From: Escherichia coli
GTDB taxonomy: Bacteria; Pseudomonadota; Gammaproteobacteria; Enterobacterales; Enterobacteriaceae
Reading direction: 5' to 3' (one strand)
Assembly: GCF_003334255.1 (NCBI RefSeq)
Contig: NZ_QOWU01000037.1
DNA length: 51,502 nucleotides
The position numbers were made by a program, and so were the translations under genes. Every line of letters starts with the position of its first letter. Position 1 is the stretch's first letter. Under the pieces are notes generated by a model, which was not told the origin of the DNA, did not search any database, and was given only the letters and a program-made list of their open reading frames with translations. Positions 254 to 1,078 of the stretch are shown in pieces.

Positions 254-1078
254 TTGCAATGTTCATTAATATACGTCTCACAAATAATTCATAGATATTG
301 CAAAATGGATATTACTGAGTTTCCTTCTGGAGTAATTGAACACCTTGGCTGGTATGTATACCGATTGATTGATCCGAGGGACGGAAGCACCTTCTATGTA
401 GGGAAAGGCAAAGGTAACCGCGTATTTGCCCATATGCGCGGTGAAGTGGCAGCGACTGATGATGACGAGTTACTGAGCAACAAGCTAAAGCAAATTAGAG
501 AAATAAGGTTAGCAGGACTTGAGGTTATCCATGTCATCCATCGACACGGAATGACTGATGAAAAGACGGCGTACGAAGTTGAAGCAGCACTTATTGATGC
601 CTACCCTGGGTTAACGAATATCATGAATGGTGCTGGCAGCAATGAATTCGGCGCCGCGCATGTCAAAGAGTTGATAGCAACATATCAACCCGAAACCATA
701 ACATTTCATCATAAAGCATTAATGATTTCCGTTAACAGAAGTGCAAAGGATTCAGAGCTTTATGATGCGGTTCGATTTAGCTGGCGCATTAATGTCTCTC
801 GCGCCAGCCAAGCAGAAGTCATTCTTGCTACTGTAAGGGGGATCGTTCGAGGGGTTTTCATTGCTGATAAATGGCTCAAATCAACACGTGAAAATTTCCC
901 TACGATGAAATACTGGGACGAGGATCCGGACTTTGAGGCAACACAAAGTTCTCGCTATGGTTTTGAAGGTCGAGAAGCCCCACCTGAAATAGCAAATCTT
1001 TATCTTGGAAAAAAAATACCAGATGAATTAAGAAAAAAAGGAGCTATGTCCCCGGTCCGTTACTCACCTAATTTTTGA
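254..1078 (+). CDS. GIY-YIG nuclease-domain protein (N-terminal catalytic domain, ~160-aa C-terminal domain of unknown function); likely start at ATG 305 (MDITEF...)
   Basis: Motif [28 protein letters not shown] (GIY...YIG spacing, conserved Arg) followed by E-rich helix ([10 protein letters not shown]). Low GC (~40%) relative to flanking phage DNA. Sits at the e14-mcrA-equivalent position downstream of the invertase gene. Confidence 0.6.

Follow-up and report, generated by a model that had tools for sequence, protein, structure and literature searches.

A GIY-YIG nuclease gene at the end of an Escherichia coli prophage, predicted to be an allele of the CMoRE/PD-T4-3 modification-dependent defence nuclease

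The anti-phage system PD-T4-3 was discovered by functional selection in the E. coli pangenome, in a study whose text names a GIY-YIG nuclease among the new systems (Vassallo 2022, PMC9519451); the name PD-T4-3 stands in the figures of that paper only, not in its text. The gene came originally from E. coli ECOR68 (Vassallo et al. 2022; Liu et al. 2026), and the system was renamed CMoRE by Liu et al. (Nat Commun 2026, PMC12923530). Prophages were the main reservoirs of the defence systems selected from the pangenome, and defence cargo at prophage ends is an established concept (PMC9519451). Here we describe a gene of this family near the left end of a 51,502-nucleotide stretch of E. coli DNA (contig NZ_QOWU01000037.1 of assembly GCF_003334255.1), the whole of which is referred to below as the window. 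An original prediction, made from the sequence alone, had placed a GIY-YIG open reading frame (ORF) at 254-1078 and had offered two explanations for it, a free-standing anti-phage nuclease, possibly modification-dependent, or a homing-endonuclease-like selfish gene. We consider it very highly probable that the gene encodes the CMoRE/PD-T4-3 type IV nuclease, which depends on hydroxymethylcytosine (hmC) and would act directly on T-even-type phages.

T2, T4 and T6 plated about five orders of magnitude less well on cells expressing the CMoRE genes of E. coli O157:H7 or Klebsiella from their native promoters, and constructs with the native upstream region were active (PMC12923530). Cultures carrying CMoRE outlived infection at a multiplicity of infection (MOI) above 1, which indicates direct rather than abortive defence, and in vivo T4 DNA reads were depleted in CMoRE cells with host DNA unchanged (PMC12923530). 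The purified enzyme cleaves DNA containing 5-hydroxymethylcytosine (5hmC) or glucosyl-5hmC and leaves DNA with cytosine or 5-methylcytosine (5mC) uncut; T4(hmC) is restricted and T4(C) is not (PMC12923530). Cleavage occurs at CN11/N9G, leaves 2-nt 3' overhangs and requires two modified cytosines; a modified cytosine is needed, but there is no strict sequence target (PMC12923530). In the structures, the GIY-YIG fold of the N-terminal domain carries a third tyrosine (GIYxY-YIG), and its active site is covered by an acidic loop of 15 residues; a mutant in which four acidic residues are replaced by alanine (4A) cuts ordinary DNA and is toxic (PMC12923530). Mutating the tyrosines or the catalytic Arg or Glu destroys activity, and defence needs a dimer-of-dimers tetramer, being abolished by V92S/L96S (PMC12923530). 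The C-terminal domain, which binds 5hm-dCTP in PDB entries 9U7Z and 9U8D, has no sequence or structural homologue according to the authors, who name UvrC as the closest structure to the nuclease domain (PMC12923530).

Modification-dependent cleavage was shown independently for a Capnocytophaga homologue (Rodriguez-Rodriguez et al. 2025, PMC12366544). This protein, PD-T4-3Capno, has about 48% identity to PD-T4-3; it degrades modified T4 DNA but not T4-GT7 DNA, its active-site mutants lose defence, and at high dose it also cuts Mu DNA with carbamoylmethyl-adenine (PMC12366544). In a clinical isolate, a native PD-T4-3 gene protects against Tevenvirinae (10.1101/2024.12.20.629700).

Family assignment, gene model and conserved residues

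The protein encoded in the window matched the PADLOC model PD-T4-3 (PDLC04031) at E 2.4e-140 over residues 1-256 of the 256-position profile, and this was its only PADLOC match. It also matched PHROG 5356 (E 2e-143). A search of the PDB returned just two distinct sequences, both aligned across residues 1-257: CMoRE of E. coli O157:H7 (9U75/9U8D, E 3.7e-172) and CMoRE of APEC O1 (9U7U/9U7Z, E 1.1e-150). Residue-by-residue comparison over the 257 residues gave 98.4% identity to the O157:H7 protein, with four conservative differences (T51A, E55D, Q169K, N197H), none of which falls on a residue tested or named by Liu et al.; 38 differences separate the window protein from the APEC O1 protein (85.2% identity). 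Among Pfam models, PF22945 (LEM-3_GIY-YIG) matched residues 28-110 with 54.2 bits (cut-off 27), and the generic GIY-YIG model PF01541 fell below its threshold (13.9 against 22.6 bits). NCBIfam holds no family for this protein; only PADLOC, PHROGs, the PDB and the LEM-3-like model of Pfam recognise the family. A single-sequence AlphaFold2 model was unusable (mean pLDDT, the predicted local distance difference test, 38.6; pTM, the predicted template modelling score, 0.29).

Judged from these comparisons, the gene is PD-T4-3/CMoRE, the published hmC-dependent anti-phage nuclease and an already known system, and the feature is identified as a near-identical allele of a defence enzyme that has been named, structurally solved and mechanistically characterised. 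It has the length and two-domain architecture of the O157:H7 and APEC O1 proteins and is likewise a single gene without a methyltransferase; the copy in O157:H7 strain TW14359 occupies the same pin-adjacent prophage position as the gene in the window. The anti-phage option of the original prediction, and its choice of T-even (glucosyl-hmC) phages as the relevant ones, are borne out by what has been published for the 98.4%- and 85.2%-identical proteins, namely modification dependence and restriction of T2, T4 and T6 by about 5 logs. With the system found in 2022, included in PADLOC and DefenseFinder, and described in structure and biochemistry in 2026, the discovery value is small; what is gained is a proper name, CMoRE/PD-T4-3 type IV restriction endonuclease, for a gene product that RefSeq lists as 'LEM-3-like GIY-YIG domain-containing protein' or 'hypothetical protein'.

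The ORF at 254..1078 (+) is present in the ORF list of the window, counts 274 residues from a TTG codon and carries the motif WYVYRL that had been quoted for it; the Pfam match agrees with the domain that had been named, and only the start has to be moved. The true start is most likely the ATG at 305, giving a coding sequence (CDS) at 305..1078 (+) and a protein of 257 residues. In strain G1/2, whose identity to window positions 1-1772 is 99.9%, RefSeq has a 774-nt CDS at these coordinates; residue 1 of the 257-residue form is where the PADLOC and PHROG alignments begin; both crystallised homologues open with MDITEF or MDINEF (after a 5-residue tag); and the published numbering of Y17, Y19, Y31 and Y127 matches the 257-residue form exactly and no other start. 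The 17-codon in-frame TTG extension (254..304, +), which is found in the ORF list only, is thus probably untranslated. As had been noted from the sequence, the gene is AT-rich relative to the flanking phage DNA: GC content is 43.8% in the gene (37% at third codon positions), 50.5% in pin and 55.1% in the tail and head genes, and the prophage as a whole averages 51.3%.

The N-terminal GIYxY-YIG nuclease domain, placed by the PF22945 match and by residue checks, is encoded at 305..634 (+). Its three-tyrosine motif reads W16-Y17-V18-Y19 ... F30-Y31-V32-G33. Every residue named in the Liu et al. paper is kept in the window protein (Y17, Y19, Y31, R80, V92, L96, Y127 and the acidic run at 52-55), and R39 is present as well. 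In an alignment of the window protein with APEC O1 CMoRE and a 46%-identical jumbo-phage homologue, R39, E93 and N105 are invariant, and R39 and E93 are presumably the catalytic Arg and Glu; these numbers derive from the alignment, the main text of the paper giving none. The inserted alpha2-alpha3 loop, the published autoinhibitory 'safety catch', contains the acidic run D52-D53-D54-E55 (458..469, +; GAT GAT GAC GAG). V92 and L96, the residues of the tetramer interface, are conserved, and so is R80.

The putative modification-sensing domain (residues ~121-257; 665..1075, +) is recognised by the PDB match to CMoRE entries only. Searched alone, the C-terminal 142 residues (116-257) matched CMoRE chains and no others in the PDB (E 7.6e-92), and the C-terminal ~140 residues had no Pfam match even at E<=10. 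Y127 (683..685, +), whose main-chain oxygen contacts the 5-hydroxymethyl group in the published structures, is conserved in the alignments.

Predicted activity and alternative explanations

By analogy with the 98.4%- and 85.2%-identical proteins, the C-terminal domain would bind 5hmC or glucosyl-5hmC in DNA, and the GIYxY-YIG domain would make a double-strand cut between two modified cytosines, at a fixed spacing (CN11/N9G) that leaves a 2-nt 3' overhang. The protein would act as the dimer-of-dimers tetramer, and the acidic loop over the active site would spare unmodified and 5mC-containing host DNA. Defence of this kind would be direct rather than abortive and specific for T-even-type phages, and would require neither a methyltransferase nor an immunity protein. 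The annotation of strain G1/2 places no methyltransferase gene in the ~38-kb prophage or beside the nuclease gene, as the original prediction had observed for the visible sequence, and the gene therefore has the stand-alone character of a type IV nuclease. The type II restriction-modification (R-M) pair that neighbours it elsewhere is found only in some genomes and is therefore not its partner.

Given an intact ORF and the conservation of every named residue, we are highly confident that the copy in the window is a functional CMoRE allele, and activity like that of the O157:H7 enzyme is expected of it. We infer that a conserved region upstream of the gene drives its expression without help from the phage late genes. 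That region (132..304, +) travels with the gene: the ~170 bp between a tRNA remnant described below and the ATG are kept together with the gene in six genomes that have three different left junctions. It contains a weak sigma-70-like pair, TTGTGA (244-249) and TAATAT (267-272) with a 17-nt spacer, whose hexamer score of 8/12 is below the scanner threshold; conservation alone suggests a promoter at 244-272. A lysogen of the window prophage is predicted to resist T2/T4/T6-like phages, and since about 15% of complete E. coli genomes carry the nuclease gene, the system is relevant to host range in phage therapy.

Several observations weigh against this conclusion. One of the differences from the O157:H7 protein, E55D, lies within the acidic loop, where O157:H7 has DDDD; the window protein has DDDE, as does that of APEC O1. 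Inspection of the sequence showed no clear Shine-Dalgarno sequence ahead of the ATG at 305, and a promoter and terminator scan of positions 1-1800 found no site upstream of the nuclease gene at threshold; shuffled sequences gave site counts at least as high. Driven by its native promoter, the APEC O1 gene defended only weakly (PMC12923530), and in strain NILS69 one phage evades the native-level system but not the overexpressed one (10.1101/2024.12.20.629700). Together these points would fit a silent or decayed copy, that is, a family member that confers no defence on its host because it is unexpressed or an inactive allele. We judge this unlikely. The ORF is intact and its upstream 170 bp are conserved along with it; one and the same protein accession, WP_000355484.1, is annotated in G1/2, which matches this stretch at 99.9%, and in three strains whose flanks differ, a sign of purifying selection; and about 5 logs of protection came from the 98.4%-identical O157:H7 gene under its native promoter (PMC12923530).

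Much less probable is a free-standing homing endonuclease of the GIY-YIG type, in which case the gene would be selfish and would spread by cleaving cognate sites that lack it; we give this explanation very little credence. The protein has a weak match to the homing-endonuclease family phrog_314 (E 0.0021), depositors have labelled jumbo-phage homologues 'putative homing nuclease', and the gene forms a discrete cassette of about 1 kb found at several junctions. The phrog_314 match is confined to the N-terminal nuclease domain, however, and the C-terminal domain corresponds to a base-modification sensor, not to a DNA-binding module of the NUMOD or IENR type. The published enzyme needs a modified cytosine and has no strict sequence target (PMC12923530). 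The gene lies in no intron or intein and splits no conserved gene, but sits at the prophage end between an attachment site (att) remnant and pinE, and the cassette edges resemble recombination at a terminator hairpin and a tRNA att remnant. Among all the contexts examined there was no intron, intein or split gene, nor a copy beside a homing target, and the selfish-gene option of the original prediction is not retained. I-TevI-like homing endonucleases are characterised by an intron, intein or target-site location and a C-terminal sequence-specific DNA-binding module, and the window gene has neither.

An abortive-infection toxin that kills the infected cell by degrading host DNA is the least probable of the explanations considered, and to us scarcely credible. 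It could draw on the behaviour of the 4A mutant, which without its acidic loop cuts ordinary DNA and is toxic (PMC12923530), but that loop is intact in the window protein, and the published cultures survive at MOI >1 with T4 DNA depleted and host reads unchanged (PMC12923530).

If the gene is CMoRE, as we think, it joins several other enzymes of similar specificity. The PvuRts1I/AbaSI family and GmrSD/BrxU are other type IV enzymes dependent on hmC or glucosyl-hmC that, like CMoRE, target the modified cytosine of T-even-type phages. PvuRts1I-type enzymes cut about 11-13/9-10 nt from hmC and leave short 3' overhangs, which resembles the fixed distance of CMoRE cleavage. Their nuclease folds (PD-(D/E)XK-like in PvuRts1I/AbaSI, DUF262/HNH-type in GmrSD/BrxU) and their readers are nevertheless unrelated to CMoRE, and none of these enzymes is found among the PADLOC and PDB matches of the window protein. 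The type II enzymes Eco29kI and Hpy188I and the N-terminal domain of UvrC have the GIY-YIG catalytic fold in common with CMoRE, but they are sequence- or lesion-specific and are without the third tyrosine, the acidic lid loop and the C-terminal sensor (PMC12923530).

Prophage context and cassette edges

The window contains a prophage of about 38 kb, which was read from the RefSeq annotation of strain G1/2. G1/2 matches the window over 1-25000 at ~100% identity except for an inverted segment, and the prophage reading beyond that point is by correspondence of annotation. The integrase gene (37311..38474) adjoins the tRNA-Thr gene thrW (38489..38564), the integration site of the prophage. The modules comprise lambdoid regulatory, replication and lysis genes, an HK97-type head and a Mu/e14-like contractile tail with ymfQ, baseplate J, gp46 and a DNA circularisation protein. 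At the other end come the invertible tail-fibre segment, pinE and then the nuclease gene, which is the last gene of the prophage.

The pinE-type serine invertase gene (1136..1690, -; Pfam Resolvase E 7e-51, with HTH_7; pinE in RefSeq) is convergent with the nuclease gene, with 57 bp between the two stop codons, so the reported adjacency to a tail-fibre invertase is confirmed. It has 92% DNA identity to pinE of the K-12 prophage e14, in which the order is ymfQ-stfP-tfaP/tfaE-stfE-pinE-mcrA-prophage end. The description of the locus as the mcrA-equivalent position accordingly stands in that mcrA is the last gene beyond pinE at the tail-fibre end of e14, although the orientations differ, mcrA being co-directional with pinE and the window gene convergent with it. 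McrA (EcoKMcrA) is also a modification-dependent type IV enzyme with a reader and a nuclease and no need of a methyltransferase. It is not homologous to the window protein, however, being an HNH nuclease (PADLOC mREase_IV, E 6.5e-203), and the likeness is one of position and function. McrA targets 5mC and 5hmC and is not known to act on glucosylated DNA. At this prophage position, one modification-dependent nuclease thus appears replaced by another, non-homologous one.

The invertible tail-fibre segment (1752..3480) is bounded by 21-nt inverted crossover sites at 1752-1772 and 3460-3480. Strain G1/2 has it reversed, at 99.9% identity once reverse-complemented, which would fit an active Pin switch. 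The fibre expressed in the window orientation is a glycine-rich protein of 327 residues (2781..3764).

The limits of the nuclease cassette were defined by comparing the window with loci from other genomes, which are cited below by our handles (L001 and so on). On the left, homology begins at 76 or 108, depending on the context; on the right, it stops at 1136-1138 in contexts without pin. In loci with pin but without the nuclease gene, homology to the window begins at 1101-1106. A 38-nt hairpin at 1099..1136 (fold -20.9 kcal/mol, z -3.7), located between the convergent stops, forms the right cassette edge and is likely a bidirectional terminator; following the pinE stop, it is the exact boundary of the variable slot.

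A second copy of the hairpin, partial or complete, was seen at the left cassette edge in several genomes, and the window has no left copy. Hairpin copies lie at L005 3290-3311, L006 3287-3308, L007 3276-3312 and L011 4579-4600, and the left copy is joined to a serU remnant at a CGGTTT(T)C microhomology. These junctions suggest that the cassette was acquired when terminator hairpins recombined. The fusion through CGGTTT(T)C and the absence of a left copy from the window fit an exchange between phage terminators, by either illegitimate or homologous recombination. Hairpin copies as a target duplication or as an end structure of the IS200/IS605 type were also considered and rejected as unsupported.

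On its left the cassette is bordered by a degenerate 3' fragment of the tRNA-Ser(CGA) gene serU, running from the anticodon stem-loop to the T arm (66..131, -) and recognised by alignment with K-12 serU; Rfam gave only weak tRNA-like matches in this region. An exact serU copy of ~67 nt is found at the same place in O157:H7 TW14359 (L004 3262-3328). The fragment is probably the att remnant of a serU-integrating phage. A direct repeat of the thrW att site was sought, and window positions 1-400 share no word of at least 10 nt with the tRNA-Thr region. Having its integrase at thrW but a serU remnant and no thrW repeat at the nuclease end, the prophage looks composite, possibly without two att sites that match.

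The first ~75 bases of the window are common to G1/2-type genomes only. Positions 54-79 have a 26-nt exact inverted match 1.1 kb upstream in G1/2 (L001 4864-4889), near the 5' end of a frameshifted transposase gene, and are probably the end of an insertion sequence abutting the cassette.

Distribution, the pin-distal slot and other features of the window

Of 5426 complete E. coli genomes, 838 have the nuclease gene at 95-100% identity (823 of them with at least 80% of the gene), and about 560 genomes have it together with the pin allele of the window. In the loci examined it always lay at prophage ends, sometimes beside a type II R-M pair. At ssrA-adjacent prophage ends without pin, the gene is next to a type II endonuclease gene and a C5-cytosine methyltransferase gene (L005 421-4274, L006 418-4274), and one pin-adjacent copy is followed by the same R-M pair (L011 3616-6555). 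CMoRE and the R-M pair form a small defence cluster there and are compatible because CMoRE ignores 5mC. The gene also occurs in a few records annotated as plasmids.

Homologues in Klebsiella and Enterobacter have 83-85% identity. Full-length homologues of 38-45% identity occur in jumbo phages of Serratia, Pseudomonas, Klebsiella, Pectobacterium and Pantoea. The jumbo phages (the Serratia Moabite/2050HW group, Pseudomonas OBP, Klebsiella N1M2 and others) are virulent, and their homologues are annotated as hypothetical or as 'homing nuclease'. In Serratia phage Moabite, gp009 (L016 3001-3765) keeps the GIYxY-YIG motif, R39, E93, N105, Y127 and the motifs of the C-terminal domain, and is without the four-residue acidic 'safety' run. 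The Moabite homologue could be a weapon between phages.

The contents of the slot beyond pinE were surveyed in a small hand sample of pinE loci with the end-of-prophage layout, which is too small to call the slot a hotspot. Besides mcrA in K-12 e14 and CMoRE, alone or with the type II R-M pair, the slot held an OLD/AriA/GajA-like ATP-dependent nuclease gene in one strain (L008 3887-5575). In strain VTB97420v it held an unannotated pair of genes for proteins of 432 and 86 residues (NZ_CP178690.1 3678415-3680581; L012 3888-6054). This pair had no PADLOC match and is a candidate for uncharacterised defence cargo. One slot was empty, with the host gene pphA directly beyond pinE. P2-like phages lack such a slot: their related invertase gene lies internally, ahead of the tail sheath gene. 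We regard it as an even question whether the space from the pinE hairpin to the prophage end, in e14-type prophages with Mu-like tails, is an exchange site for nuclease-type defence cargo, perhaps one not yet described. If it is a true defence hotspot, its unannotated occupants would be candidate new defence genes, and the duplicated hairpin and the junctions with tRNA remnants would hint at a route of cassette swapping.

Some other features of the window are unconnected with the nuclease gene. By correspondence with the RefSeq annotation of G1/2, an HNH endonuclease gene lies beside the small terminase gene (~20819-21169, -), an iss/bor-like gene for a serum-survival lipoprotein at ~21695-21988 (+), and an OmpC-like porin gene between the lysis genes and the Q antiterminator gene (23779-24861, +). 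An Rfam scan of the window at gathering thresholds found only the tRNA-Thr and an ALIL pseudoknot, and nothing near the nuclease gene. The pseudoknot (50966-51082, +; 121.5 bits) is a programmed-frameshift element of IS3-family transposases and indicates an insertion sequence in host DNA near the right end of the window.

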